A stretch of 64,000 nucleotides of DNA, taken from contig CAVPXI010000008.1 of NCBI GenBank assembly GCA_963709585.1, positions 20,258-84,257 on the forward strand, written 5' to 3'. Numbering within the stretch: position 1 is the first letter of the stretch; each line of letters opens with the position of its first letter. This DNA comes from Candidatus Dormiibacterota bacterium. Its GTDB lineage: Bacteria; Chloroflexota; Dormibacteria; Aeolococcales; Aeolococcaceae. The notes below the pieces were generated by a model. The model was not told the DNA's origin. It made no database searches and saw only the letters and a program-made list of their open reading frames with translations. Below are positions 3,417 to 19,337 of the stretch, in pieces. Both the position numbers and the translations under genes were made by a program.

Positions 3417-4661
3417 GTGACGTTTCTTTCGGGGCTGCACGGGGTGGTTGCGCTGGCGCTGCTCCCCGCGCTGCTCTTCGCCGAGGAGGCAGGCGTCCCG
3501 CTGCCGTTCGCCCCGGGGGAGCTGGTGCTCCTGGTTGCGGGCCTGCTCATCGCATCCGGCGGGCTCAATCCGTATGCGTTCATACCGCTGGCGCTCGTCG
3601 CCTGCATCGCCGGGTCGCTGGTCGGCTACAGCTGGGCTCGCGCCGTCGGTGATCGAGGTCTCAGAGGGCTGGCCCGGCGCCTGCGCCAGCAGCGCAACCT
3701 CGAGCGCGTCGAGGCACGGCTTCGCGCGACGGGATGGAGAGGGATCGCGATCAGCAGGCTGATCCCAGGCCTGCGCATCTACACCACGTTGGTCGCGGGT
3801 GCTGTCCAGGTCCGGCGGCAGTCATTCATCCTGGCGATGGTCGCGTCGACGATCGTCTGGGTCGGAGTCTTCGTCTCCCTCGGAATCCTGATCGGCGTGC
3901 CCGTCGAGCATTTTCTTGGCCGGATTCAACAACTCGCCGTTCAGGGGGCGATCCTCGTCGCCATGGGCGTCGGCTGCTACGTGGCGGTGCGCAAGACGCC
4001 GTCGTCGTCGGGGGCAGGGCTCGTCCGGGTGCCACGCTGGGTGCGAGTTGTGCTCGCCGCCCTGCTCGATATCGGCGTCGTGGCCAGCATCGTGACCGGG
4101 TTGCTTGCCCTCGGGCGCCTGCTCGATCTCGGCTTCGGGAGCGGCTGGTTGGACCCGGTGATTGCGCTCCTGGTCGTCGGAGCGTTTTATGTGATCGTCG
4201 CCCGGCGCAGTGCAGGGGCGACGGCAGGCGAGGTCCTGCTGCAGACCAGCTACGTCAGCGGTCATGGGTTGCCGCTGAAACCTCGAGCGGCGCTGGCGGC
4301 GGTGCGCTCCCTGGTCACACGATCGGACGACGAGCTGACGGCCACCGGTGACCTGCTCCACGCGCTCGGCGATCCCGAGCGGCTCCGGATCGTCACCCAG
4401 CTGCTCGACGGCCCCCAGACGCTCGATGAGCTCGCCTTGAGGTCGAGGCTCTCCCCCTTCGAAGTCCTGCACCAGCTCGATCGATTCCAGTCGACCGGAG
4501 TACTCGTGATCAACGGCCAGGAACCGAACGCGACGTATGCGATTCGCGCCGACCTGGGCCATGTGCTGCTCCAGCTGCTGGCCATCATGGAGTCGACACC
4601 GACGGCGACCGCGCCTCAGGAGGCCATGCCGAAGCCGGCGCAGACCAACCCCGTCGGCTAA
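3417..4661 (+). CDS. DedA-family membrane protein with additional TM/RDD-like segment and C-terminal ArsR-type winged-helix domain
   Basis: DedA-like N-terminus (EEAGVPLPFAPGELVLLVAG ... ISRLIPGLRIYTTLVAG), further TM helices, then LGDPERLRIVTQLLDGPQTLDELALRSRLSPFEVLHQLDRFQSTGVLV (ArsR HTH). Start set at GTG 3417 and is uncertain. Confidence 0.7.
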   Translation: MTFLSGLHGVVALALLPALLFAEEAGVPLPFAPGELVLLVAGLLIASGGLNPYAFIPLALVACIAGSLVGYSWARAVGDRGLRGLARRLRQQRNLERVEARLRATGWRGIAISRLIPGLRIYTTLVAGAVQVRRQSFILAMVASTIVWVGVFVSLGILIGVPVEHFLGRIQQLAVQGAILVAMGVGCYVAVRKTPSSSGAGLVRVPRWVRVVLAALLDIGVVASIVTGLLALGRLLDLGFGSGWLDPVIALLVVGAFYVIVARRSAGATAGEVLLQTSYVSGHGLPLKPRAALAAVRSLVTRSDDELTATGDLLHALGDPERLRIVTQLLDGPQTLDELALRSRLSPFEVLHQLDRFQSTGVLVINGQEPNATYAIRADLGHVLLQLLAIMESTPTATAPQEAMPKPAQTNPVG

Positions 4662-4698
4662 CCAGCCGGACGCGGCTTGGTTCTCCCGACGGTCGCGC

Positions 4699-5718
4699 TC
4701 AGAGCGCTCCGACGATGAGCGCAAACACAGCCGCCATTGCGGCAGTCGCAGGGATGGTGAGCACCCAGGCGACCAGAATATTTCGCGCCACACCCCATCG
4801 CACCGCTCCGAGCCGGCGGGTTGCCCCCGCTCCCATCACCGCCCCAGAGACCACATGTGTCGTGCTCACCGGCAGCGCGAGTTGCGTGGCGCCCTGAATC
4901 ACGACCGCCGCCATGGTCTGGGCGCAGAAGCCGTCGACCGGCTCGAGCCTGATCACCTTCATGCCCAGGGTCCGGATGATCCGCCAGCCGCCTGCGTATG
5001 TCCCGAACCCGATCGCCGTCGCCGCCAGCAGCACCACCCAGAGCGGCGGTGACGGAAATTGTTTTCCACCCGCGGAAAGCACGCCTGCGCTAACCAACGC
5101 GAGGGTGATCACCCCCATCGTCTTCTGCGCGTCATTGGCCCCGTGCGAAAACGACACGAACGCCCCGGACGCGATCTGAGCCAGGCGAAAGCGTCGGTTC
5201 ATGGGACTTGGCTGGGCGTGGCGGAACACGTCGAGGGTGAGGATGGTGAACGCATACGCCAAAACGAGTCCGATGAGTGGTGAGGCGACCAGTGCGATGA
5301 CCACAGGAACCACGGATCCCCATTTAACCGCGTCCACGCCATACGCGACCACGCCCATACCGATGAGTGCCCCGATCAATGCATGCGACGAGCTCGACGG
5401 CAATCCCAAACGCCAGGTGATGAGGTTCCAGACGATCGCGCCCACGAGCGCCGCAATGATCATGCCGAGCGACACGCCGTGCTTTGGCGCAACCAGTCCT
5501 CCGATTGTGTTGGCGACATGCGTGTGCAGAATCTCGATGGCGATCAGCGCGCCCAGAAGATTGAACGCCGCCGACATGGCGACCGCCGTGCGCGGCCCGA
5601 GCGCACGCGTGCTGATCGACGTCGCCACCGCGTTCGCTGTGTCATGGAATCCGTTGGTGAAGTCGAATCCCAGCGCGATCACCACGGTCGCGATCAGCAG
5701 CGTATCGACGCCGGTCAC
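4699..5718 (-). CDS. inorganic phosphate transporter, PiT family
   Basis: FDFTNGFHDTANAVATSISTRAL and SFSHGANDAQKTMG signature repeats. The GTG start overlaps the stop of the upstream DUF47 gene (GTGA at 5715-5718). Confidence 0.9.
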   Translation of the reverse strand: MTGVDTLLIATVVIALGFDFTNGFHDTANAVATSISTRALGPRTAVAMSAAFNLLGALIAIEILHTHVANTIGGLVAPKHGVSLGMIIAALVGAIVWNLITWRLGLPSSSSHALIGALIGMGVVAYGVDAVKWGSVVPVVIALVASPLIGLVLAYAFTILTLDVFRHAQPSPMNRRFRLAQIASGAFVSFSHGANDAQKTMGVITLALVSAGVLSAGGKQFPSPPLWVVLLAATAIGFGTYAGGWRIIRTLGMKVIRLEPVDGFCAQTMAAVVIQGATQLALPVSTTHVVSGAVMGAGATRRLGAVRWGVARNILVAWVLTIPATAAMAAVFALIVGAL

Positions 5719-6335
5719 GCGTTCTTGATGATGATGCCTTCGATAACGTTGGCCACGTCCTCGCAGCGATCGAGCGAATCTTCGAGCAGCGTGTAGAAGT
5801 CCTTGAGCTTGATGATCGTGACTGCGTCGTGCCCCCCGCTGAACAGCTCCCCGATTGCGCGCCGCAACTCGGTATCGGCGACGTTCTCGATGCGATGGAC
5901 CTCGATGCCGTGGTCGCTCACCCCGGCCTTCGCCTCGAGCTTCGAGACCGCCGCCTGGATCTGCACGGCCGCTTCCACGATCAGACCGGCCATGGATCGC
6001 GCCGCCGGTGGGATCTCGGCGATCCCGTAGAGGACGATCGTCTCGGCGATCTCGTCGATGTAGTCGAGCACATCATCGAGTCCCGAGCTCAAGGCGTAGA
6101 TGTCCTCGCGGTCGAACGGGGTGATAAAGGTGCGGTTCAGAGTCCTGATGATCTCGTGGGTCAGCTCGTCACCGGCGTGCTCCAGGTCCTTGATCGCCGC
6201 CTGGTGCGCAGGCATCGCCTCGATGCGGTCGTCGAAGGCGGCGCGGAGCAATTGCGAGGCTTCCACCACGTTGGCCGCCTGGCGATCGAACAGCTCGTAA
6301 AATCGGCGTTCGCGACGGAGGAGACTGACCGGCAT
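5715..6335 (-). CDS. DUF47 / PhoU-like phosphate transport regulator
   Basis: Internal ATG at 6335 (MPVSLLRRERRFYELFD...). All-helical PhoU-like protein, translationally coupled to the PiT gene, which is the usual pairing. Confidence 0.8.
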   Translation of the reverse strand: MPVSLLRRERRFYELFDRQAANVVEASQLLRAAFDDRIEAMPAHQAAIKDLEHAGDELTHEIIRTLNRTFITPFDREDIYALSSGLDDVLDYIDEIAETIVLYGIAEIPPAARSMAGLIVEAAVQIQAAVSKLEAKAGVSDHGIEVHRIENVADTELRRAIGELFSGGHDAVTIIKLKDFYTLLEDSLDRCEDVANVIEGIIIKNA

Positions 6336-6355
6336 GGGCGCGCCGATCCTACCTG

Positions 6356-8239
6356 ATGGACCTTCCATGCGACGACCAGGTCACCCGCGCGCCACAGAAC
6401 TCCGAACGACTGCCCCAATTTGGGCCTGAGAGGGGAACCTATTTCCAGGCCCTGCCCCGGGCCGCGCGAGGCAACATTGCGGAGAGGGGTGCCGCGGGGG
6501 TTGGACACATCACCGACGTCACCCGGCCGCCCACGCCGGACGCTGTCCCCTCCGCCCATCAGTGGCAACGTCGACCGGTTCTGAGCCTGCTCGTCCGTGC
6601 CGCGGTCGTGGTCGTTCCCGCCGCGGTCGCGATCGCGGCCGGAACCGCGGTGGGCCGTGTCCTGCCGCGACCGAACGGCTTCGCCGGTGCAGCGCTGTCG
6701 TTCGCAACGGTGACTCTGGTGATGCTCGTGACCATCATCGCGCTGGAACGCGCGGGTCGCCGTCTGCTCCCGCTCGCTGCGCTCCTCAATCTGTCGATGA
6801 TCTTCCCCGACCGCGCGCCGAAGCGGTTCGCTGTGGCTCGTCGGGTTGGGAAGCCACGCGATCTACAGCGCCAGCTTCAGGAAGCGCGCGAAAAGGGCGT
6901 AACCGGCGGCGAGGTCGCGCACATGCAGCTGGTGTTGGAGCTCGTCGCGGCGCTCAGCGTCCACGACCGCCAGACCCGCGGTCACTCGGAACGGGTTCGC
7001 GTGTTCACCGACCTCATCTCCGACGAGATGAAGCTCGCTCCCGGCGATCGCGCCCGGCTGCGCTGGGCGGCGCTGCTCCACGACATCGGCAAGCTGGTCG
7101 TCCCAGCCGAAATTCTGTCCAAGCCCGCAAAGCTGACCACCGCGGAGATGGACGACGTCCGTCGTCACCCCGACGAAGGCGCGAGGCTCATCGGTTCGTT
7201 GAGCGCCTGGCTCGGCGAGTGGGCCGGCGCAGTGGCCCAACATCACGAACGCTTCGACGGTCGCGGCTATCCGCGGGGGCTGGCCGGCGATCAGATCTCG
7301 CTCGCCGGGCGCATCGTCGCGGTCGCCAACTCGTATGAGGTGATGACCGCGGTGCGCCCGTATCGCAAGCCGATCGGCGTCTCAGCCGCCCGGCAGGAGC
7401 TGGTGAAGTGCTCGGGGGCACAGTTCGATCCGGTCGTCGTTCGCGCCTTTCTGAACATCTCCGTGGGACGTCTCTGGCGAGTCGTCGGACTCAGTTCCTG
7501 GATCGCGCAGCTACCGCTGATCGGCTGGGTCGACCGCCTGGGATGGAACTGGGGCGCGGCGGTCATGTCCGGGACCACGGCACTCGGCCTGACCGCGCCT
7601 GGAATACTGCCGCACACGTCCCGGCCTCCCGCGCCGACCGCGGCAATCTCGGTCGTCTCCACCGGCCCGCTGCCCGCTCAGGGACAGGGTGGATCGACCG
7701 GCCGGACCGGTGGCGCGCCAGGGACAGGCGCGACCCCCAACTCGGACAAATCATCCACTCCCTCAGCATCTCCGACGCCCGCGCCCGGCAGCGTGTTGTC
7801 GTTGCCAATCCCAACGCTCCCCGCTATCCCAGCGCCAATTCCGACCCCAACGCCCCGCAGCTCGCCGCCGTTGCCAATCCCGACGCCCACTGCTACATCA
7901 ACGCCAATCCCAACCCCAGCGCCTGCCCCGCCCCCCACGCCGCCGCCACCCGACAAGCCCCCGGTCGTGACCGTCAACGGGCGCGTCAACCTGCTCGGTG
8001 GTTTCAGCGGTTCGGGCAACTTTGCGGACCCCGACGGCGGCGGCGACACCTACACCGCGACGGTGAACTACGGGGACGGCAGCGGTCCGGTTCCGCTAAC
8101 ACTCACCAGCACCACCTTCGTCCTTTCATACCAGTATCCGGTGCTCGTCCTCTTGCCGCAGCAATACAAGATCACGGTGACCGTCACGGACAGCGAGGGA
8201 ATATCAGGCAGCGCTTCAACCACCATCACGATCCTGTAG
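6356..8239 (+). CDS. HD-GYP domain protein with N- and C-terminal TM segments, Pro/Thr-rich linker and C-terminal PKD-like domain
   Basis: HDIGKLVVP ... HHERFDGRGYP (HD-GYP); hydrophobic stretches before and after the domain; PT-rich tract; C-terminal YTATVNYGDGSG ... ITVTVTDSEGISGSASTTITI. The true start is probably downstream of 6356. Confidence 0.8.
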   Translation: MDLPCDDQVTRAPQNSERLPQFGPERGTYFQALPRAARGNIAERGAAGVGHITDVTRPPTPDAVPSAHQWQRRPVLSLLVRAAVVVVPAAVAIAAGTAVGRVLPRPNGFAGAALSFATVTLVMLVTIIALERAGRRLLPLAALLNLSMIFPDRAPKRFAVARRVGKPRDLQRQLQEAREKGVTGGEVAHMQLVLELVAALSVHDRQTRGHSERVRVFTDLISDEMKLAPGDRARLRWAALLHDIGKLVVPAEILSKPAKLTTAEMDDVRRHPDEGARLIGSLSAWLGEWAGAVAQHHERFDGRGYPRGLAGDQISLAGRIVAVANSYEVMTAVRPYRKPIGVSAARQELVKCSGAQFDPVVVRAFLNISVGRLWRVVGLSSWIAQLPLIGWVDRLGWNWGAAVMSGTTALGLTAPGILPHTSRPPAPTAAISVVSTGPLPAQGQGGSTGRTGGAPGTGATPNSDKSSTPSASPTPAPGSVLSLPIPTLPAIPAPIPTPTPRSSPPLPIPTPTATSTPIPTPAPAPPPTPPPPDKPPVVTVNGRVNLLGGFSGSGNFADPDGGGDTYTATVNYGDGSGPVPLTLTSTTFVLSYQYPVLVLLPQQYKITVTVTDSEGISGSASTTITIL

Positions 8240-9312: not shown

Positions 9313-9380
9313 CGCGGCAGCCCAAGCCAACTGCGATCGCTCCGCGGCACAGAATGCTGGGGGGCAGTGAGGAGGTAGTT

Positions 9381-10535
9381 GTGCTGCAAGCAAGTCGCGC
9401 CGATCGGTTCTCGTTCGGGCTGTGGACCGTGGGCTGGCAGGGCGTTGACGTTTTCGGCACCGCTGTGCGCGCGCCACTCGATCCCGAGCTCGCTGTAGGC
9501 CGGCTCGCCGAGCTGGGTGCGTATGGAGTGAGCTTCCACGACAACGACGTGTTCCCATTCGCGGCCACCGCCGCGGAGAAGAGCGCGGCGATCGACCGGT
9601 TGCGCCGGGCGGTCGACAGCGCCGGGCTGGTGGTGCCGATGGTGACCACGAATCTCTTCTCGCACCCGGTATTTCGCGACGGCGCGTTCACCGCCAATGA
9701 CCGGGAGGTGCGCCGCTTCGCGCTCCGCAAGGTGGCGGACAACCTCGATCTCGCCGCCGAGCTCGGTGCGGGTATCGTCGTGTTCTGGGGTGGTCGCGAG
9801 GGTGCGGAGTTGGGGGCCGCAAAGGACGTGGGCGCTGCGCTCGACCGGTACAAGGAAGCCTTCGACATCCTCACCGGCTATGTCATCGAGCAGGGCTACG
9901 CAATGCGCTTTGCCATCGAGCCCAAGCCAAACGAGCCCCGCGGCGACATCTTTCTGCCCACCATCGGTCACGCGCTCTCGTTCATCGGCGAGTTGGAGCA
10001 CTCTGAGATGGTCGGGCTCAATCCCGAGGTCGGTCACGAGGAGATGGCGAGCCTGAACTTCGCGCACGGGCTGGCTCAGGCGCTCTGGCACGGCAAGCTG
10101 TTCCATGTCGACCTCAACGGCCAGAACGGACCGCGCTACGACCAGGACCTTCGCTTCGGCGCCGGCAACGCCCGAGGCGCCTTCTGGACGGTGGACATCC
10201 TCGAATCCGGCGGTTACGAGGGACCTCGTCACTTCGACTTCAAGCCTCCGAGGACCGAGGACATGGAGGGGGTGTGGGAGAGCGCGGCGGCGTGCATGCG
10301 CAACTACCTGCTGCTCCGCAGTCGGACTCACGCATTCCGATCGGACCCCCAGGTGCAGGCGGCACTGGCGGCGGCTCGACTCGACGAGCTCCGGCAGACC
10401 ACCCTCGCGCCTGGGGAGTCCCTCAGCGCGATGCGCTCGCAGACCTTCGACGCCGACGCGGCCGCGGCTCGTGGCATGGCCTTTGAGCGCCTCGACCAGC
10501 TTGCGCTGGACTACCTCTACGGCATCCGCTACTAG
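9381..10535 (+). CDS. xylA: xylose isomerase
   Basis: [13 protein letters not shown]..., [19 protein letters not shown] and [11 protein letters not shown] motifs of actinobacterial XylA. GTG at 9381 is preceded by GAGGAGG at 9369-9375. Confidence 0.92.
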
Positions 10536-10601: not shown

Positions 10602-12065
10602 ATGAGCTCGGCTGCGCTGGTCGGCATCGATATCGGGACCACGTCCGCCAAGGGCATCGCGATCGACCCCGGATCGGGGGCGGTGCTGGCGACCGCTGAA
10701 TCCGAGTACCCGGTGAGCTCACCCCAGGTGGGCTGGAGTGAGCAGGAGCCCGAGGCCTGGGTGACCGGGACGCACGAGGTGCTCGCGAGCTTGAGGACCG
10801 AAGCGTCGGAGATCCTCGGCATCGGCTTCTCCGGGCAGATGCACGGGCTGGTCTGCCAGGACGCCGGCGGTGCGGTGATCCGCCCCGCGATCCTCTGGAA
10901 CGACCAGCGTTCCGCACCTCAGTGCGCTGCCCTGGAGGCCGGGACCGGGAGGGATCGGCTGATCCGGCTGACCGGCAACCGCGCCCTGCCCGGTTTTACC
11001 GCGCCCAAGCTGCTCTGGATGCGCGAGAACGAACCGGCGGCGTTCGCCCGTATCCGACGGATCAGCCTTCCCAAGGACTACGTGCGTGACCTCCTCGTGG
11101 GCGGACACCGGAGCGACGTCGCCGATGCGTCGGGAACGCTGCTCCTCGATGTCGGCGAGCGCCGCTGGAGCAGCGAGCTGCTCGCGGAGCTGGACATCCC
11201 CGCGTCGTGGCTGCCCGAGCTTGCCGAAAGCCCCGATGCCGTCGGCAGGCTGGACGGTGTCCCGGTTGCAGCCGGAGCCGGAGATCAAGCCGCTGCCGCG
11301 ATGGGCGCCGGGATCACCGGTCCCGGCCCGCTCTCGGTCGTCCTGGGCACGTCGGGGGTCGTGCTCGCCGGGACCGATCGCTTCCTGGCCGACCATGAGG
11401 GACGGGTGCACGCCTTCTGCCACGCCGCGCCGGGACGGTGGCTGGTGATGGGCGTGATGCTGTCGGCGGCCGGGTCGCTTGCCTGGTTCCACGACACCCT
11501 GCTCCGCGGGGTCGCCTACGACGCCATGCTCGGCGAGGCCGAGAGCGTTCCGCCCGGCTGCGAGGGTCTCGTCTTCCTGCCCTATCTGGCCGGCGAGCGG
11601 ACCCCACACGCCGATCCGCTCGCGCGCGGCGCGTTTTGCGGCCTCTCGGTCACCCACGGGCGCGGCGCCCTGACCCGAGCCGTGTTGGAAGGAGTCGCGT
11701 TCGCGCTGCGCGATTGCCTCGACGTGGTCACTGGCGTGGGGGTTGCCGCCGCGCGTGGGCGTGTCTCGGGGGGAGGCTCGAGAAGCCGTCTGTGGCTCCA
11801 GATCGTCGCCAGCGCTCTCGAGATGCCTCTCGAAGTCATGGCCACCGATCAGGGCTCAGCGTTCGGCGCTGCCCTGCTAGGCGGTTTGGCCAGCGGTGTC
11901 TACAGCGACCTCGACCAGGCGAGCGCCGCCTGCGTTCGCGCCACAGAGGTCATCGATCCCGTCGCCGAGTGGATCGAGGCCTACCGGGAGGCACGGCGCC
12001 GGTTCCGCGACTACTATCCCGCCCTCCGCTCGGTCACGCAGACCCGGCCCGCCTCTTCAGGCTGA
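10602..12065 (+). CDS. xylB: xylulokinase
   Basis: FGGY kinase motifs (VGIDIGTTSAKG, GFSGQMHG, AGAGDQAAAAMGAG, FLPYLAGERTPH). Directly downstream of xylA. Confidence 0.9.
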   Translation: MSSAALVGIDIGTTSAKGIAIDPGSGAVLATAESEYPVSSPQVGWSEQEPEAWVTGTHEVLASLRTEASEILGIGFSGQMHGLVCQDAGGAVIRPAILWNDQRSAPQCAALEAGTGRDRLIRLTGNRALPGFTAPKLLWMRENEPAAFARIRRISLPKDYVRDLLVGGHRSDVADASGTLLLDVGERRWSSELLAELDIPASWLPELAESPDAVGRLDGVPVAAGAGDQAAAAMGAGITGPGPLSVVLGTSGVVLAGTDRFLADHEGRVHAFCHAAPGRWLVMGVMLSAAGSLAWFHDTLLRGVAYDAMLGEAESVPPGCEGLVFLPYLAGERTPHADPLARGAFCGLSVTHGRGALTRAVLEGVAFALRDCLDVVTGVGVAAARGRVSGGGSRSRLWLQIVASALEMPLEVMATDQGSAFGAALLGGLASGVYSDLDQASAACVRATEVIDPVAEWIEAYREARRRFRDYYPALRSVTQTRPASSG

Positions 12066-13274
12066 TCTGCGCTCGGCGCTGCGTGCCGGAACCAGGGTCG
12101 GCTCGTCGAGGACCCGCGTCAGCGCCAGCTCCGCCGCACCGAGCAACGGCCCGTCGGCGCCGAGCTGCGTCGGCCTGATCAGCGCATCCACGTCGAGAGC
12201 CGGCGCCATGACCCGGGCCCGGAGCTCCGCCTGCACGATGTGTTCGACGACGGGCCACATGGTGCCGAGGAAGCCGCCGAGCACGACCCGCTGCGGGTTG
12301 AAGACGTTGACGAGACCGGCCAGACCGGAGCCGAGCCAGTGGCCGACATCCTCCACCGCCGCGAGCGCCACCGGGTCGCCCCACGCCGCATCCCTGAGCA
12401 GGCGGGTGACTGCCTCGGGCTTGTAGCTCTTCTCGGCAATCCCGATCCGGCGCAACATCGCCGGGCCGCCGATCTCCGTCTCCCAGCAACCCATCGCCCC
12501 ACACCGGCATTGCACGCCGTTGGGATTCACCTGAACGTGCCCCACCTCGCCGGCGCAGCCCGCTGCCCCGACCAGCAGCTTTCCATCGATGACCAGGCCG
12601 CCGCCGACGCCCACCTCGCTGGTCACATAGATGAGGTGGCTGACCCCGACGCCCGCCCCCCACGTGTGTTCCGCAAGCGCTCCGAGATCCGCCTCGTTGG
12701 CGATGACCACAGGCAGGCCGGAGCCGAGCCGGTCCGCGACCAGACGCCCGAGCGGCACGTCCCTCCATCCCAGGTTCGGGGCGAAGTGCACGAGCCCGTC
12801 CGCTCGGCTGACCACGCCGGCGACGGCGATGCCGAGGCCGGCCACCCAGCAATCGGGGGGGATGGAAGCCAGTGCGGTCTGGATGAGCTTGCCGACGTCC
12901 TCGATGGTCTGGTCGACGGCCAGGCGACGCGGCTGATGGGTCGCCCGAGCGCGGTGGAGGATCCGGCCGCCGAGCCCGACGACGGCCGCGGACAGCGAAT
13001 TGACGGCGATCTCGGCGGTGATCACCGCGGCGCCCTCGGGGTTCGGACGAGCCACCAGTGAGGGGCGCCCGGGCGACCCCAGACGGGCGGGATCGCCCTC
13101 CTCCACCAGGCCGCGAGCGCGAAGGTCTGCGACCAGCTCGCCGATCGTGCTCCGGGTCATCCCCAGGGCGCCGCCGATCTCGGATCGGGACAGCGCCCCC
13201 GACTGATGCAGGTGGCGGAGCAACAGGCTCAGGTTGTGACGGCGGACGGACTCCGGCGAGGCCATGGGGCTCAT
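12057..13274 (-). CDS. ROK-family transcriptional regulator (XylR-like)
   Basis: N-terminal winged-helix (NLSLLLRHLHQSGALSRSEIGGALGMTRSTIGELV) plus ROK sugar-kinase-like body with CRCGAMGCWET zinc motif. Last gene of the minus-strand transporter operon. Confidence 0.85.
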   Translation of the reverse strand: MSPMASPESVRRHNLSLLLRHLHQSGALSRSEIGGALGMTRSTIGELVADLRARGLVEEGDPARLGSPGRPSLVARPNPEGAAVITAEIAVNSLSAAVVGLGGRILHRARATHQPRRLAVDQTIEDVGKLIQTALASIPPDCWVAGLGIAVAGVVSRADGLVHFAPNLGWRDVPLGRLVADRLGSGLPVVIANEADLGALAEHTWGAGVGVSHLIYVTSEVGVGGGLVIDGKLLVGAAGCAGEVGHVQVNPNGVQCRCGAMGCWETEIGGPAMLRRIGIAEKSYKPEAVTRLLRDAAWGDPVALAAVEDVGHWLGSGLAGLVNVFNPQRVVLGGFLGTMWPVVEHIVQAELRARVMAPALDVDALIRPTQLGADGPLLGAAELALTRVLDEPTLVPARSAERRSA

Positions 13275-13304: not shown

Positions 13305-14651
13305 TCAGGCTCGAGGCTGAGCGCCGCGGCGCGAGAGGACGTCGATGGTGCCTGCCGCCAGCAGCACGAGCGCCACAACGATGTCGATCCAGTCGGACGT
13401 GACCCCGATCAGGATCAGCCCGTTGTAGATGCCGCCGATCATCAACCCGCCGAGTAGACCGTGGATCGTCTTTCCCCGGCCGCCGAACAGGCTGGTGCCA
13501 CCGATGACCGCGGCAGCCACTGCCAGGAGCACGTAGCTGTTGGCGTCCTTGATGATGTTGGTCGTGATCGACACCTGCCACGACGCGAAGAGCACGCCGG
13601 CGATCCCGGCGGTCAGGGCGGCGAGCACGAATCCCCAGGTGCGGATGGTGGGCAGATTGATCCCGGCTCGGCGCGCCGCCTCGGGGTTCCCGCCGATCGC
13701 GTACACGTACCGGCCGAAGCGGGTGCGCTGCAGGAGGATGGTCCAGGTGACCAGCACCACCAGGACGATCGGAATGATGAAGGGCAGCCCGACGATGGTC
13801 CCGAAGTGCGCACGGTTCACGTTGCACACAGCGACGACGATGACCCCCGCCACTGCCCCGACGATGATCTTCAAAGCGGTGAGGCTGGCCGGCGGAGCCA
13901 CCAGGCCGGAGTGGCGGCGGCGGGAATCGGCGAACCACACCGCGCCGCCGGCGATCACCCCCACGACGGCCAGCAGGATCCAGCTGACCGTCGGGTCGAA
14001 CTTCCCATAGAAGATGTTGTAGATGGCGACCTCGTTGCCGAACCGGGAGTTCCCGAGGCCGACGAGGCTGCCCCCGAGGACGATGATCGAGACGCCCTCG
14101 AGCACCAGCAGGCCGCCCAACGTCACGATGAACGACGGCATCTTGACCCGGGCGACCAGAGTCCCCTGGATCAAGCCCACGGCCGAGCAGATGAGCAGGG
14201 CCACGATGATCGCGATCCACCACGGCCATCCGAGGCCGGCAGGCTGCACCTCCTCGGCGACCAGGACGGCGCCCAACCCCATGACCAGCCCGACAGAGAG
14301 GTCGATCTCCCCGAGCAGCAGGGCGAAGATCTCGGCCATCGCCAGGAGCATGTAGATGGTGCTCTGCTCGAAGAGGTTGACCAGGTTCTGCGGGGACAGG
14401 AACTTGCCGTTGGCGATCTGGAACGCGACGGCGACGACGATGATGCCGAGGAGGACGGGGAGGACGCCGCTGTCGCCGCCGCGGATCCGCTGTCCCCAGG
14501 CGCGCAGATACTGACCCAGGGATTGGGCCAGGAGCTCCGGCGGCACCTCCGCGACCGCCTCGGCCGGGGACGCCGCGGTGAGGTCGACGAGCGGCTCGGC
14601 GAGAGCCGGCTCGGCGGCCGCGATCGGCGGGTCGGTCTCTCTCCCAGCCAT
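13305..14651 (-). CDS. sugar ABC transporter permease (CUT2/XylH-like), distal copy
   Basis: 448-aa polytopic membrane protein. Its first ~71 aa are identical to the other permease (15487-16851), and the rest is only paralog-level similar. Confidence 0.85.
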   Translation of the reverse strand: MAGRETDPPIAAAEPALAEPLVDLTAASPAEAVAEVPPELLAQSLGQYLRAWGQRIRGGDSGVLPVLLGIIVVAVAFQIANGKFLSPQNLVNLFEQSTIYMLLAMAEIFALLLGEIDLSVGLVMGLGAVLVAEEVQPAGLGWPWWIAIIVALLICSAVGLIQGTLVARVKMPSFIVTLGGLLVLEGVSIIVLGGSLVGLGNSRFGNEVAIYNIFYGKFDPTVSWILLAVVGVIAGGAVWFADSRRRHSGLVAPPASLTALKIIVGAVAGVIVVAVCNVNRAHFGTIVGLPFIIPIVLVVLVTWTILLQRTRFGRYVYAIGGNPEAARRAGINLPTIRTWGFVLAALTAGIAGVLFASWQVSITTNIIKDANSYVLLAVAAAVIGGTSLFGGRGKTIHGLLGGLMIGGIYNGLILIGVTSDWIDIVVALVLLAAGTIDVLSRRGAQPRA

Positions 14652-15490
14652 GGCTCAGTCACTCCCTCTGGCGACCGCAGCTCCGAGCGGCGCGTGGGGC
14701 CGCCCGTTCGAACCCCCGGTGGTCATGTACTCGATCACGCTCTGCCGGTCGAAGCCGGCCACCGGCCCCTCGGCCACCATCCTCCCCAGGTGGAGCACGG
14801 CGATCCGGTCGGCCACCTCGAAGACGTCGTTGAGGTTGTGGGAGATCACCATCACCGCCAGGCCCCGGTCCCGGAGCCTGCGCACCAGGTCGAGCACCAT
14901 CCGGGTCTGGACCACCCCCAGCGCCGCGGTGGGCTCGTCCAGGAGCACCACCTTGGAGTTCCACATCACCGCCTTCGCCACCGCCACCGACTGGCGCTGC
15001 CCACCCGAGAGCGAGCCCACCGGCTGGCGGATCGAGCGCACCGTGGTCACCCGCAGGCTGCTCAGCGTCTCCGCCGCCGCCCGCTCCATCGAGTCCTCGT
15101 CGAGCAGCCCCCGGCGCAACCGCTCCCGCCCCAGGAACATGTTCTGGACGATGTCCAGGTTGTCGGCCAGGGCCAGGTCCTGGTAGACGGTCTCGATCCC
15201 CAGGCCGGCCGCGTCCCGGGTGGTGCGGATGTGCACCGGCTGGCCTTCGAAGAAGATCTGCCCGTGGTCGATCTGGTGGACCCCGGCGATGCACCGGGTG
15301 AGCACCGACTTGCCCGCCCCGTTGTCGCCACAGAGCCCGGTCACCTGGCCCGCGGGCAGATCCAGGTTCACCTGGTAGAGCGCCTGCACCGGCCCGAAGT
15401 GCTTGTCGATGCCCCGCAGCTGCAACAAGGCTTCCGCCGGGGCCGTCGCCCCACCGCTCACCCCTGCCCCGGGGTCGTGATTCATCTCAG
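14458..15490. repeat. 1,033-bp perfect direct repeat, copy A (ATPase gene plus 5' end of downstream permease)
   Basis: Line-by-line comparison shows 14458-15490 identical to 16658-17690 (offset exactly 2,200 bp). Identity breaks at 14457/16657 and 15491/17691. Confidence 0.95.
14655..15485 (-). CDS. sugar ABC transporter ATP-binding protein (single NBD), distal copy
   Basis: Walker A GDNGAGKS, signature LSGGQRQ, Walker B VVLLDEPTAALG. Nucleotide-identical to 16855-17685. The ATG at 15485 matches the other copy's start. Confidence 0.88.
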   Translation of the reverse strand: MNHDPGAGVSGGATAPAEALLQLRGIDKHFGPVQALYQVNLDLPAGQVTGLCGDNGAGKSVLTRCIAGVHQIDHGQIFFEGQPVHIRTTRDAAGLGIETVYQDLALADNLDIVQNMFLGRERLRRGLLDEDSMERAAAETLSSLRVTTVRSIRQPVGSLSGGQRQSVAVAKAVMWNSKVVLLDEPTAALGVVQTRMVLDLVRRLRDRGLAVMVISHNLNDVFEVADRIAVLHLGRMVAEGPVAGFDRQSVIEYMTTGGSNGRPHAPLGAAVARGSD

Positions 15491-16851
15491 ACACGAGACA
15501 CGCTCCCGGTCCTGGCTCCCCGCCGCGAGAGGACGTCGACCATGACCGCGATCAGGAGGACGCTGCCCGGCAGGATGTACTCGAGCGGCGTCGAGAGCTC
15601 TCCCAAGGAAAGCAGGGACACGCCGTAGGCGATGCCGCCGATCATCAGTCCGCCGAGGAGACCGTGGATCGGCTTGCCGCGGCCGCCGAACAGGCTGGTG
15701 CCGCCGATGACCGCGGCGGCCACCGAGTACAGGATGAGCTGACCGGGATCGGCATCGTTGGTGCTGTACTGCCCGTAGAAGAAGGAGCCCAGCAGGATCC
15801 CGGCGAACCCGGCGGTCGCCGAGCAGAGTGCGAATGCGCCGGTGCGAACCCAGGCCAGGTTCACGCCCGCCCGGCGAGCCGCTTCCGGATTGCCGCCGAT
15901 CGCGTAGACATAACGGCCGAACTGGGTGCGCTGGAGCAGCAGAGTCCAGACGCCCACGATAGCGAGGACGATCGGAATCACCTCGGGGACCCCCGAGGGG
16001 AGGTTCAACCCGCAGATCGCCACGACCGCGACTTCGAGGGCCGCCATGAAGACGATGCGAATCGCGACCAGGGGGAGCGGGGGTGCCACCAGGCCGCTGC
16101 GCCGTCGCGCGGAGGTGCGTATCAGGAGCGCTGCCGCCGCGATGAACACCAGCGCCGCCAGCGCCACCCAGCCGGCCACGGGGTTGATGACCCCCTGCAC
16201 CAGGTTGAAGATCACGCTCTGGTTGGGCACCTGAGAGCTGACCGTGAGGGTTCCATCAGCGCCGCCCAGGATGATGATGATGATGCCCTCGAAGAGCAGG
16301 AAGCCTGCCAGGGTGACGACGAATGAGGGGATCCTGAGGCGCGACACCAGGGTGCCCTGGATCGCGCCGATGATCGCGCAGCAGACCAGCGTGGTGAGGA
16401 TCGCCGCCCACCAGGGCCAGTTGGGTCCCGGGTTCTGCTGCACCAGCTTGAAGGCGATGGTCCCGCCGAGGAGCGCGACCGAACCGATGGAGAGATCGAT
16501 CTCGCCGAGCAGCAGGACCGCGATCTCGGCGGTGGCAAGAACCATATAGACCGTGCTCAAACCGAAGATGTAGACCAGGTTGCTGGGCCGCAGATAGGCG
16601 TTCTCCGGGGTGATGATTTCGAAGGTGACGGCGACCAGGATGATGCCGAGGAGGACTGGGAGGACGCCGCTGTCGCCGCCGCGGATCCGCTGTCCCCAGG
16701 CGCGCAGATACTGACCCAGGGATTGGGCCAGGAGCTCCGGCGGCACCTCCGCGACCGCCTCGGCCGGGGACGCCGCGGTGAGGTCGACGAGCGGCTCGGC
16801 GAGAGCCGGCTCGGCGGCCGCGATCGGCGGGTCGGTCTCTCTCCCAGCCAT
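15487..16851 (-). CDS. sugar ABC transporter permease (CUT2/XylH-like), proximal copy
   Basis: 454-aa polytopic membrane protein. Its stop codon (15487-15489) lies inside the repeated block, 1 nt before the next ATPase start. Confidence 0.85.
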   Translation of the reverse strand: MAGRETDPPIAAAEPALAEPLVDLTAASPAEAVAEVPPELLAQSLGQYLRAWGQRIRGGDSGVLPVLLGIILVAVTFEIITPENAYLRPSNLVYIFGLSTVYMVLATAEIAVLLLGEIDLSIGSVALLGGTIAFKLVQQNPGPNWPWWAAILTTLVCCAIIGAIQGTLVSRLRIPSFVVTLAGFLLFEGIIIIILGGADGTLTVSSQVPNQSVIFNLVQGVINPVAGWVALAALVFIAAAALLIRTSARRRSGLVAPPLPLVAIRIVFMAALEVAVVAICGLNLPSGVPEVIPIVLAIVGVWTLLLQRTQFGRYVYAIGGNPEAARRAGVNLAWVRTGAFALCSATAGFAGILLGSFFYGQYSTNDADPGQLILYSVAAAVIGGTSLFGGRGKPIHGLLGGLMIGGIAYGVSLLSLGELSTPLEYILPGSVLLIAVMVDVLSRRGARTGSVSRV

Positions 16852-17690
16852 GGCTCAGTCACTCCCTCTGGCGACCGCAGCTCCGAGCGGCGCGTGGGGC
16901 CGCCCGTTCGAACCCCCGGTGGTCATGTACTCGATCACGCTCTGCCGGTCGAAGCCGGCCACCGGCCCCTCGGCCACCATCCTCCCCAGGTGGAGCACGG
17001 CGATCCGGTCGGCCACCTCGAAGACGTCGTTGAGGTTGTGGGAGATCACCATCACCGCCAGGCCCCGGTCCCGGAGCCTGCGCACCAGGTCGAGCACCAT
17101 CCGGGTCTGGACCACCCCCAGCGCCGCGGTGGGCTCGTCCAGGAGCACCACCTTGGAGTTCCACATCACCGCCTTCGCCACCGCCACCGACTGGCGCTGC
17201 CCACCCGAGAGCGAGCCCACCGGCTGGCGGATCGAGCGCACCGTGGTCACCCGCAGGCTGCTCAGCGTCTCCGCCGCCGCCCGCTCCATCGAGTCCTCGT
17301 CGAGCAGCCCCCGGCGCAACCGCTCCCGCCCCAGGAACATGTTCTGGACGATGTCCAGGTTGTCGGCCAGGGCCAGGTCCTGGTAGACGGTCTCGATCCC
17401 CAGGCCGGCCGCGTCCCGGGTGGTGCGGATGTGCACCGGCTGGCCTTCGAAGAAGATCTGCCCGTGGTCGATCTGGTGGACCCCGGCGATGCACCGGGTG
17501 AGCACCGACTTGCCCGCCCCGTTGTCGCCACAGAGCCCGGTCACCTGGCCCGCGGGCAGATCCAGGTTCACCTGGTAGAGCGCCTGCACCGGCCCGAAGT
17601 GCTTGTCGATGCCCCGCAGCTGCAACAAGGCTTCCGCCGGGGCCGTCGCCCCACCGCTCACCCCTGCCCCGGGGTCGTGATTCATCTCAG
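16658..17690. repeat. 1,033-bp perfect direct repeat, copy B
   Basis: See copy A. All overlapping six-frame ORFs are duplicated with identical translations (for example 14578-15186 and 16778-17386). Confidence 0.95.
16855..17685 (-). CDS. sugar ABC transporter ATP-binding protein (single NBD), proximal copy
   Basis: Same protein as 14655-15485, with identical Walker A, signature and Walker B motifs. Confidence 0.88.
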   Translation of the reverse strand: MNHDPGAGVSGGATAPAEALLQLRGIDKHFGPVQALYQVNLDLPAGQVTGLCGDNGAGKSVLTRCIAGVHQIDHGQIFFEGQPVHIRTTRDAAGLGIETVYQDLALADNLDIVQNMFLGRERLRRGLLDEDSMERAAAETLSSLRVTTVRSIRQPVGSLSGGQRQSVAVAKAVMWNSKVVLLDEPTAALGVVQTRMVLDLVRRLRDRGLAVMVISHNLNDVFEVADRIAVLHLGRMVAEGPVAGFDRQSVIEYMTTGGSNGRPHAPLGAAVARGSD

Positions 17691-17710
17691 TCGCCTCAGA
17701 TCAATGAGTT

Positions 17711-17736
17711 GTCGATGGCATTAGTCGATGGCATTA
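17711..17736. repeat. tandem 13-mer (GTCGATGGCATTA x2) just upstream of the first ATPase gene
   Basis: Two exact adjacent copies at 17711-17723 and 17724-17736, AT-richer than their surroundings, about 25 nt upstream of the ATG at 17685 on the minus strand. Confidence 0.6.
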
Positions 17737-17834
17737 AATGACGTGCCCGGTCCAGCCCGCGTCTTCCGGCATCCGTCCCGTGTTCGAGGCACCGGCCGAT
17801 CTCGGGTGGTGCGGTGCCCTGGGAGCAGGGCAAA

Positions 17835-17860
17835 CCGGGCCGCCCCGAAGGGCGACCCGG
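17835..17860 (-). terminator. GC-rich hairpin with UUCG loop between the SBP and ATPase genes (attenuator / mRNA-stabilising hairpin candidate)
   Basis: Minus-strand RNA CCGGGUCGCCC-UUCG-GGGCGGCCCGG (one G-U pair) followed by UUUG. It lies about 50 nt after the SBP stop, in a 220-nt intergenic gap. Confidence 0.45.
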
Positions 17861-17906
17861 CTGCTCTCTCCTGCGGAGATGCCCACAAGGGCGCTCCGTC
17901 AGACGA

Positions 17907-19199
17907 TTACGAGATTCCTGCCGCCGTGCAGAGGCTCTGGCCGGCGATGGCGCAGATCGACATGGCGGGGTCGAAGCCGTCCTTGACCACCGTCGCCTCC
18001 ATGTTGGCCGCGTTGACCCACGATGCGGTCAGAAGCGACGCCGGCTCGGTGATGCTGCTGTTGGCGGGGTCAATCGTGGTGCCGTTCAAGAGCGCCGTCG
18101 GGACCGTGTTGCCGGAGAGGAGGATGTCGGCCAACGCGACCGCATCCTGGGCCTCCTTGTAGACCGGCTTGTACACGGAGCCGCACTGGTAGCCCTCGAG
18201 AATCCACGCCATACCCTGGGCGGTCGCGTCCTGCCCGGTCACGGGGATTTGCTTCGGCTTCACCCCCGCCGCCTTGAGGTCGTTGATCACCGCGTTGCCG
18301 AGCCCGTCGTTGGCCTCGATGGTCGCGTTGATCGTGGGATGGGACGTGAACTCCTGCTGGAAGATCGTGCCGCCCTGGGTGTTCGACCACCCCGGAGCGA
18401 AGTTCTCTCCGACGAGCTTCATCCCTTGGCTGTTGGTCGCACCCGCGGTGACGCTTTTGGCCGCCTGGCTCCAGACAACCTTGTTGTATCCGGTGGCGAA
18501 GGAGATGGCGTTGGGATCGGTGTCCTCACCGCCGTTGAGCACGAACACCTGCGGGCTCTTGATGCCCCAATCGGAGACGCAGGTCACGAAGCCGTTGCCG
18601 ATGGCCTCGCCGACGGCCTCGTTGTTGAAGCTGACGTAGTAGGTCTTGGAGCCCTGGAAGGTCGCCCGGTCGTAGCTGATCAGGGTGACTCCCTTGGACT
18701 CGGCCAGCTGCGCGATCGCCTGGCCCGTCGGCCCATCGAGTGGGCACATGATCAGGACCTTGGCGCCGAGGTTGATATCGGCGGTCGCGTCGTCGAGCTC
18801 GGTCGCATCACTGCCCTGGGCGTTGTCGATCCGGAACTGCTGCTGGTTGAACCCGGCGTCCGCCAGCGCTGACGTCAGGTAGGGCTGATCGAAGTCCACC
18901 CAGCGCGTCGACGAGGTCGTGTCGGGGAGGATCACTCCGATGAGCAGGCTGTTGACGCCCTTGGTCGCGTACGCGGTCAGCGACTTGAGCGAACCCATCG
19001 TCGACGCGATGTCGGTGGTGAACGCGCTGACGGTCACGCCCGATGGGACGCCGGGGTTCGTGACGGCCGAGCCGGTGTTGCCGGTCGACGTGCTTCCGCA
19101 GGCCGCAGCCACGAGCGCGGCACCACCCACCAGGGTGACCCGGCTCAACTTCGACAGACCATGGGACCCCCGGCCCCTGATTCCATCTTGCAAACGCAT
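17907..19199 (-). CDS. sugar ABC transporter substrate-binding lipoprotein (XylF-like)
   Basis: Signal/lipobox LVGGAALVAAACGS, then a periplasmic-binding-protein fold typical of CUT2 binding proteins. Internal ATG at 19199 preferred over 19262. Confidence 0.85.
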   Translation of the reverse strand: MRLQDGIRGRGSHGLSKLSRVTLVGGAALVAAACGSTSTGNTGSAVTNPGVPSGVTVSAFTTDIASTMGSLKSLTAYATKGVNSLLIGVILPDTTSSTRWVDFDQPYLTSALADAGFNQQQFRIDNAQGSDATELDDATADINLGAKVLIMCPLDGPTGQAIAQLAESKGVTLISYDRATFQGSKTYYVSFNNEAVGEAIGNGFVTCVSDWGIKSPQVFVLNGGEDTDPNAISFATGYNKVVWSQAAKSVTAGATNSQGMKLVGENFAPGWSNTQGGTIFQQEFTSHPTINATIEANDGLGNAVINDLKAAGVKPKQIPVTGQDATAQGMAWILEGYQCGSVYKPVYKEAQDAVALADILLSGNTVPTALLNGTTIDPANSSITEPASLLTASWVNAANMEATVVKDGFDPAMSICAIAGQSLCTAAGIS

Positions 19200-19337
19200 C
19201 AGACCTTTGCCCTCCGAACCGGAATCGACCGTCTGCGACGCCACTTGCTCCGGTAGCGACAAGTGTCGCCACCCGAACCTCTGTGAGGCAGCGTGCGGAT
19301 GGTTCGCCTATCGGGAAGGGTTTGTCAACTCCTCGAA

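Follow-up and report, generated by a model that had tools for sequence, protein, structure and literature searches.

A repeated ATPase block in a xylose-type transporter operon

The 64,000-nucleotide stretch of contig CAVPXI010000008.1 of a Candidatus Dormiibacterota bacterium that was analyzed here (the window) contains an operon which, by its predicted gene products, is that of an ATP-binding cassette (ABC) importer of the CUT2 subfamily and of the xylose type, with ATPases that have a single nucleotide-binding domain (NBD). Read on the minus strand, the genes are arranged in the order substrate-binding protein (SBP), ATPase A1, permease P1, ATPase A2, permease P2, and ROK-family regulator, beside the xylulokinase gene xylB and a xylA-like gene (Table 1). 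An earlier note, made from the sequence alone, had given this operon order, and gene calls and domain matches agree with it; an open reading frame (ORF) check of the window showed that all ORFs of the operon are intact. The same note had described a base-for-base repeat within the operon, and self-comparison of the window bore this out, as two 1,033-bp copies with an offset of 2,200 bp match with 0 mismatches, which is the longest perfect run at this offset. A match of such length is impossible by chance in practice. Of the block, 194 nt (64.7 codons) belong to the permease gene and 5 nt to the leader upstream of the ATPase ATG, and the P1 and P2 proteins are identical up to residue 71 and then share ~53% identity in the body (59% overall). 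This fits the previous description of a block made up of the whole 276-amino-acid (aa) ATPase gene and about 71 permease codons, followed by permease bodies with merely paralog-level similarity, and the stop codon of the proximal permease was likewise correctly placed inside the repeat (TGA at 15487-15489). Beyond the block, identity between the two units drops to ~55 to 60% in 60-nt windows.

The source genome, referred to as G000 in the comparisons, is a 3.52-Mb assembly that resembles a metagenome-assembled genome (MAG), with 24 contigs and a completeness of 88.8%, and the block occurs exactly twice in it. A search for repeats revealed no inverted ones. With only two occurrences in the genome and no inverted repeats, a mobile element or a family of further copies was rejected as a candidate.

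Relatives of the source genome were sought among a comparison set of 40 relatives and the GTDB genome collection, which placed the organism in Candidatus Dormibacteraeota, and the ATPase core (726 nt) was compared in 20 genomes with two ATPase-permease units. Within a genome, the two cores were 96.7 to 100% identical in 20/20 cases, with no differences in 12 genomes and at most 2 in 17, while three genomes (G006, G005, and G002) had 14 to 24 differences between their copies. In comparisons across species of the genus, identity had a median of 87.6%, or 71.9% at third codon positions, and the core of the source genome was 87.6 to 92.8% identical to that of other genomes. The paralogs within a genome are thus closer to each other than the orthologs between genomes, as in concerted evolution, and the identity reaches synonymous and noncoding positions: in the source genome, the third positions are 100% identical, as are the spacer and leader bases. 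When the two units were aligned in 12 genomes, among them G023 and G010 with a unit of 2,199 bp, identity was ~100% from the ATPase start to between about +900 and +1,060 nt and then fell to ~55% within ~100 nt. Perfect runs of 716 to 1,077 bp were present in seven of these genomes (G019, 1,077 bp; G000, 1,033 bp; G021, 1,024 bp; G023, 985 bp; G003, 966 bp; and G020 and G004), and the other five had runs of 98 to 461 bp. In a maximum-likelihood tree of the ATPases, each genome's pair formed a clade, with 100% support or as identical rows, except for the copies of G005, which were found unresolved at the base of the tree. A tree in which the ATPases were grouped by position was 795 log-likelihood units worse (approximately unbiased test, p-AU 1.9e-36).

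The permease bodies behaved differently from the ATPases. In phylogenies of these bodies, a check that the earlier note had proposed, they clustered by position as old paralogs and split into a P1 clade and a P2 clade with support values of 100/100 and 100/99. The P1 and P2 subtrees were mirror images in topology, and single-permease operons fell outside both; these trees exclude G005 and G002, whose permease genes are fragmentary or very divergent. Judged from the trees, the split between P1 and P2 long predates the genus, and the presence of the layout in 20 genomes together with the positional P1 and P2 clades places the duplication before the compared species.

Because the ATPase copies cluster by genome and the permease bodies by position, our data point to an old duplication with a repeatedly homogenized block, and we consider it very probable that the identity of the ATPase block in this single-NBD CUT2 operon reflects recurrent homologous recombination between old duplicates, that is, concerted evolution. 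The proposal of the earlier note that recombination took place between old paralogous units is supported by the by-genome clustering of the ATPases and the positional clades of the permeases. We would add that this is no single recent event confined to the source genome: the process is a standing one across the genus and is also seen in a Chloroflexia-type lineage. According to this model, two 1-kb direct repeats, lying 2.2 kb apart and each consisting of an ATPase gene and ~65 permease codons, would recombine such that one copy is repeatedly overwritten by the other, through gene conversion and possibly also through unequal exchange and collapse. The block would then evolve in concert in each genome while the permease bodies remain distinct, and the perfect 1,033-bp block would represent the current state of an ongoing process.

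The two ends of the tract would be set in different ways. Upstream, the tract would stop where homology ends, in the source genome at a CTGAG microhomology; downstream, it would stop at a two-codon indel specific to P1 and P2, where mismatches and probably selection would prevent further spread. The first mismatch downstream (14457/16657) lies just before this indel and a block of signature residues, and in every phylum compared, indel and signature residues tell each P1 protein from each P2 protein. Conversion would be halted here by heteroduplex rejection and probably also by selection against hybrid permeases. The upstream junction, on the other hand, varies between species. In most species, A2 retains a 5' end of its own and begins with a GTG located a few codons past the P1 stop, while in the source genome, G019, G021, and L050, A2 has acquired a copy of the A1-type start codon and of 4 to 19 nt of its leader. 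The join is at CTGAG or TCTGAG, a microhomology shared by the end of P1 and the region upstream of A1. Since the upstream junctions differ among species, several independent events are indicated.

Relatives and alternative explanations

The earlier note had allowed for an assembly artefact and had advised a comparison of the locus in close relatives. This comparison revealed the same layout, S-A-P1-A-P2-ROK-xylB (S, SBP gene; A, ATPase gene), in 19 further assemblies. The units measure 2,145 to 2,216 bp there, and two of the sequences that carry the layout are closed chromosomes (OY970355.1 and OY970307.1). In at least six relatives, short-read contigs stop at or inside the repeat (G022, G001, G016, G007, G014, G013, L078, and L080), which is the expected effect of a real 1-kb repeat on a de Bruijn assembler, and Illumina contigs from other genomes carry A-P1-A (L049, a 1,596-bp contig with the ATPase 3' end, P1, and the ATPase 5' end; L056, A-P1 followed by an ATPase 5' end). 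It is conceivable that the real source genome has one ATPase-permease unit and that the second stems from a chimeric join of strains or species, or that two differing copies were made identical by consensus polishing. The MAG-like and incomplete state of the source assembly would be compatible with this, and the relative G017, for which only S-A-P2 was recovered, illustrates that assemblies can differ at this locus. We nevertheless regard an artefact as very unlikely, given that the layout recurs with positionally orthologous P1 and P2 genes in 19 other assemblies, closed chromosomes among them, that A-P1-A is present in Illumina contigs, that the ORFs are intact, and that G006, G005, and G002 retain differences between their copies, so that the pipelines evidently do not force identity.

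Two other explanations accept the repeat as real and do without recurrent recombination between old duplicates. A young tandem duplication of the ATPase-permease unit in the source genome only, followed by replacement of one permease body with a foreign homologue, fits a 2.2-kb tandem unit of which 1 kb is perfect, but the P1 and P2 bodies each have orthologues in the 19 other genomes with two units, as well as in operons of Actinomycetota and Chloroflexia. Since each body is orthologous across two-unit genomes and phyla, the arrangement predates the species, and the permease-body trees led us to reject a young duplication, which we rate as even less probable than an artefact. The remaining explanation, to which we assign the lowest probability of all and practically none, is that purifying selection on the ATPase maintains the identity without recombination. 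ABC ATPases are indeed strongly conserved proteins; however, the 100% identity of the copies extends to third codon positions, to the 3-nt spacer, and to the permease leader, which evolves fast, while third positions are only ~72% identical between species, and the trees group the ATPase copies by genome.

Some points weigh against concerted evolution as we describe it or limit its details. We infer the recombination mechanism itself, and gene conversion and cycles of unequal crossover look alike and are not separated by sequence alone. The exact 100% identity in the source genome is a property of the assembled sequence, and the compared genomes are mostly long-read MAGs from one project, in which a shared bias toward homogenized repeats in assembly or polishing is possible. 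Such a bias is countered by the three genomes with 14 to 24 differences and by the Illumina contigs, which agree on the layout. Finally, the ideas of a permease heterodimer and of ATPase dosage, set out below, are inferences from sequence only.

Individual assemblies of the locus differ in further ways. In G017, the locus L036 (contig C141, 2510-8950) reads S-A-P2-ROK-xylB and lacks P1 and one ATPase copy; this may be a true recombinational deletion between direct repeats or a collapsed short-read assembly. In four long-read MAGs, L030 (G003), L031 (G023), L032 (G010), and L033 (G005), frameshifts split P1 and sometimes P2 or the SBP gene, and these may be homopolymer errors or a sign of real decay of P1.

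Genes and architecture of the transporter

As in other CUT2 systems, a Peripla_BP_4-type binding protein is combined with BPD_transp_2-type permeases (PF02653; 5e-30 and 2e-30). The fused tandem-NBD ATPase of ~500 aa that is typical of CUT2 is absent; the ATPases have 276 aa and one ABC_tran domain, and align only to positions 1 to 240 of the ~500-aa XylG, YtfR, and RbsA profiles. The proteins scored below the equivalog cutoffs of the NCBIfam XylFGH-type models (xylF, 113 versus 390 bits; xylG, 184 versus 724 bits; GguB, 202 and 183 versus 450 bits), and the score of the SBP with the ChvE profile (111 bits) was also below the equivalog cutoff. Because all transporter scores fall below these cutoffs, the substrate can be deduced from context only, and the xylB, xylA-like, and ROK neighbors suggest that it is xylose.

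Table 1. Positions of the repeat copies, operon genes, and adjoining genes in the window
Feature	Position	Strand	Profile match
Repeat copy 1, promoter proximal, 1,033 bp: 5 nt of leader, whole A1, 3-nt spacer, first 64.7 codons of P1	16658..17690	-	
Repeat copy 2, 1,033 bp: P1 TGA stop, whole A2, spacer, first 64.7 codons of P2	14458..15490	-	
Downstream edge of homogenized tract; two-codon indel and P1/P2 signature residues within ~60 nt	14400..14457	-	
SBP lipoprotein, XylF/ChvE-like (Peripla_BP_4); start codon uncertain	17907..19262	-	PF13407, about 1e-38 to 6.6e-38
ATPase A1, 276 aa, single ABC_tran domain; GAGG ribosome-binding site ~10 nt upstream	16855..17685	-	
Permease P1, 454 aa, XylH/GguB-like; body (codons ~72-454) in P1 clade; C-terminal tail runs into repeat copy 2	15487..16851	-	
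ATPase A2, 276 aa, protein same as A1; ATG 1 nt past P1 stop (TGAgATG), without own ribosome-binding site	14655..15485	-	
Permease P2, 448 aa; body in P2 clade	13305..14651	-	
ROK-family regulator, N-terminal helix-turn-helix, XylR-like	12057..13274	-	
Xylulokinase, xylB	10602..12065	+	TIGR01312, 512 bits, above cutoff
Xylose-isomerase-like TIM-barrel gene	9354..10535	+	

The earlier note had pointed to two identical half-size NBD genes combined with two different transmembrane subunits as an unusual way to build such an importer. The description itself holds, but a half-size ATPase is not unusual for the subfamily, since a single-NBD ATPase of ~260 to 276 aa is encoded at every related locus in three phyla and has a precedent in Sulfolobus (PMC7264815; see below). 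The half-size ATPase is hence normal in this subfamily and not a product of the repeat arrangement, and it would have to dimerize. As P1 and P2 always co-occur, a P1-P2 heterodimer that associates with an ATPase homodimer is the most likely arrangement. Both permeases have the same EAA-type coupling motif, GGNPEAARRAG, which fits a single ATPase docking on both. With each permease gene preceded by an ATPase gene and with spacers of 1 to 3 nt, the operon would allow balanced synthesis of the subunits at 2:1:1. Translation of A2 is probably coupled to that of P1, because its ATG follows the P1 stop codon so closely and a separate ribosome-binding site is lacking. The second ATPase gene is not obligatory, as many operons have one ATPase gene and both permease genes (S-A-P1-P2).

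Both permeases carry an N-terminal extension of ~65 residues (residues 1 to 66; genes within 13305-16851) that lies outside the region covered by the GguB profile. Its motif, DLTAA...PPE[IL]LAQSLGQYLR.W...GDSGVLPV, is kept across phyla, and the extension is always within the homogenized tract. It is conceivable that this leader of the permease, which is always co-converted with the ATPase, might be coadapted with it. A second conserved element is found in the gap between the SBP gene and A1 (17686-17906, 220 nt, minus strand, especially 17690-17745), which ends in a leader of ~40 nt, AATGCCATCGAC...CTCATTGATCTGAGGCGACTGAGATG. This leader upstream of A1 is conserved in most species of the genus, and a 13-mer within it, TAATGCCATCGAC, is tandemly duplicated in the source genome. 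The A1 leader might act as an operator or form an RNA element.

Origin of the second ATPase gene and comparison with known systems

Related operons are found beyond the genus. In Actinomycetota MAGs (Streptosporangiaceae, Trebonia, and Acidimicrobiales), the order at all 13 loci is S-A-P1-P2, with a single ATPase gene and one permease each of the P1 and P2 types, and two basal Dormibacterota loci, L029 (G024, 3648-7134) and L059 (3173-6756), read S-A-P1-P2-ROK and likewise lack the second ATPase gene. The two permease genes of G024 overlap by ~35 nt. A Chloroflexia-type clade (L067, L079, and L089) has A-P1-A-P2 with an internal repeat of 1.1 kb at 95 to 96% identity, and the ATPase cores within L067 and within L079 are 99.9 to 100% identical. 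Two Streptosporangiaceae loci show additional duplications or homologues. In the MAG locus L075, an 813-bp repeat with 99.3% identity (692-1502 and 6920-7731) flanks S-A-P1-P2, and behind it lies a second SBP gene that has diverged; this repeat may be another gene-converted duplicate. In L065, a second ATPase-like domain (465-1115, opposite strand; 45% identical) is located upstream of the SBP gene.

With regard to the origin of the layout, the ancestral operon could have been S-A-P1-P2, with the second ATPase block gained later by a duplication of A-P1 and a deletion that joined the leader of P1 with the body of P2. Such a gain is favored by the S-A-P1-P2 order of all 13 Actinomycetota loci and of the basal loci L059 and G024, and also by our own parsimony count on the permease tree, in which gains take ~3 steps and losses ~4. 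However, a gain would call for two rare steps that occurred at least twice independently, in the Dormibacterota genus and in the L067/L079/L089 clade, with the block ending at the same place each time, whereas the mechanism by which one of two direct repeats is lost is an easy one and a single tandem duplication of A-P accounts for P1, P2, and the second ATPase together. The N-terminal likeness of P1 and P2 in one-ATPase operons is confounded by the strong conservation of the leader. A later gain thus seems to us a serious but somewhat less probable scenario, and because one A-P duplication explains both the permease pair and the second ATPase and direct repeats are easily lost, we lean toward a second ATPase gene that was ancestral and was lost several times. 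In its most far-reaching form, ancestry of the second gene would mean that A-P1-A-P2 arose directly from the tandem duplication to which P1 and P2 owe their origin, and that the block has been homogenized without interruption since before the Dormibacterota, Chloroflexia-type, and Actinomycetota operons separated and was maintained, via translational coupling, for the 2:1:1 balance. We put this forward as a speculative and, as a whole, rather unlikely proposal; if true, it would be a case of exceptionally long-lasting and sharply bounded concerted evolution.

Regardless of its origin, the locus provides a natural case of concerted evolution within one bacterial operon that is replicated in 20 genomes of an uncultured phylum. 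It adds to a short list of long-lasting prokaryotic cases and is a tractable system in which to study how the limits of a tract are set. In practical terms, the 1-kb repeat breaks short-read assemblies and leaves P1 on orphan contigs of ~1.6 kb that are dropped in binning, so that one permease will often be missing from the annotation of Dormibacterota MAGs. Furthermore, CUT2 importers that combine single-NBD ATPases with two diverged permeases are widespread among soil Actinomycetota, Chloroflexia-type bacteria, and Dormibacterota.

Among characterized transporters, E. coli XylFGH and Agrobacterium ChvE-GguAB resemble the system described here, in that the best matches are XylF and ChvE for the SBP, GguB for both permeases, and XylG and YtfR for the ATPase, and in that a ROK/XylR-type regulator and xylB adjoin the operon. 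Unlike the operon described here, both have a fused tandem-NBD ATPase of ~500 aa and one permease gene. Single-NBD ATPases are found in FrcA-type CUT2 transporters. The xylose/arabinose transporter of Sulfolobus acidocaldarius, a single-NBD CUT2 system (Wagner et al. 2018, as described in PMC7264815), is similar in its CUT2-type binding protein and permease, its single-NBD ATPase, presumed to be a homodimer, and its pentose context. Relative to the Sulfolobus transporter as that description presents it, our locus differs by its two diverged permeases, its two identical ATPase genes, and the ~65-residue N-terminal extension of the permeases.

The process proposed here is already known, and the locus is a new and clear example of it. 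The tufA and tufB genes of Salmonella and E. coli undergo concerted evolution by gene conversion. Wang and Chen (2018; PMC6053082) reported 26 cases of long-lasting concerted evolution, including amoCAB, haoAB, and cycAB, described the phenomenon as rare in prokaryotes, and tied it to the balance of subunits or genes. No ABC transporter was found in the text of that paper, and a full-text literature search on concerted evolution in ABC transporter operons retrieved no description of this locus. Similar to those cases and to tufA/tufB, our locus combines near-identity within a genome, including at synonymous sites, with divergence between species, conserved synteny, and products that are subunits of a complex. 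It differs from them in that its repeats lie in tandem in one operon, 2.2 kb apart, and in that the tract runs from one gene into the next, where it ends at a fixed indel that is specific to the paralogs.

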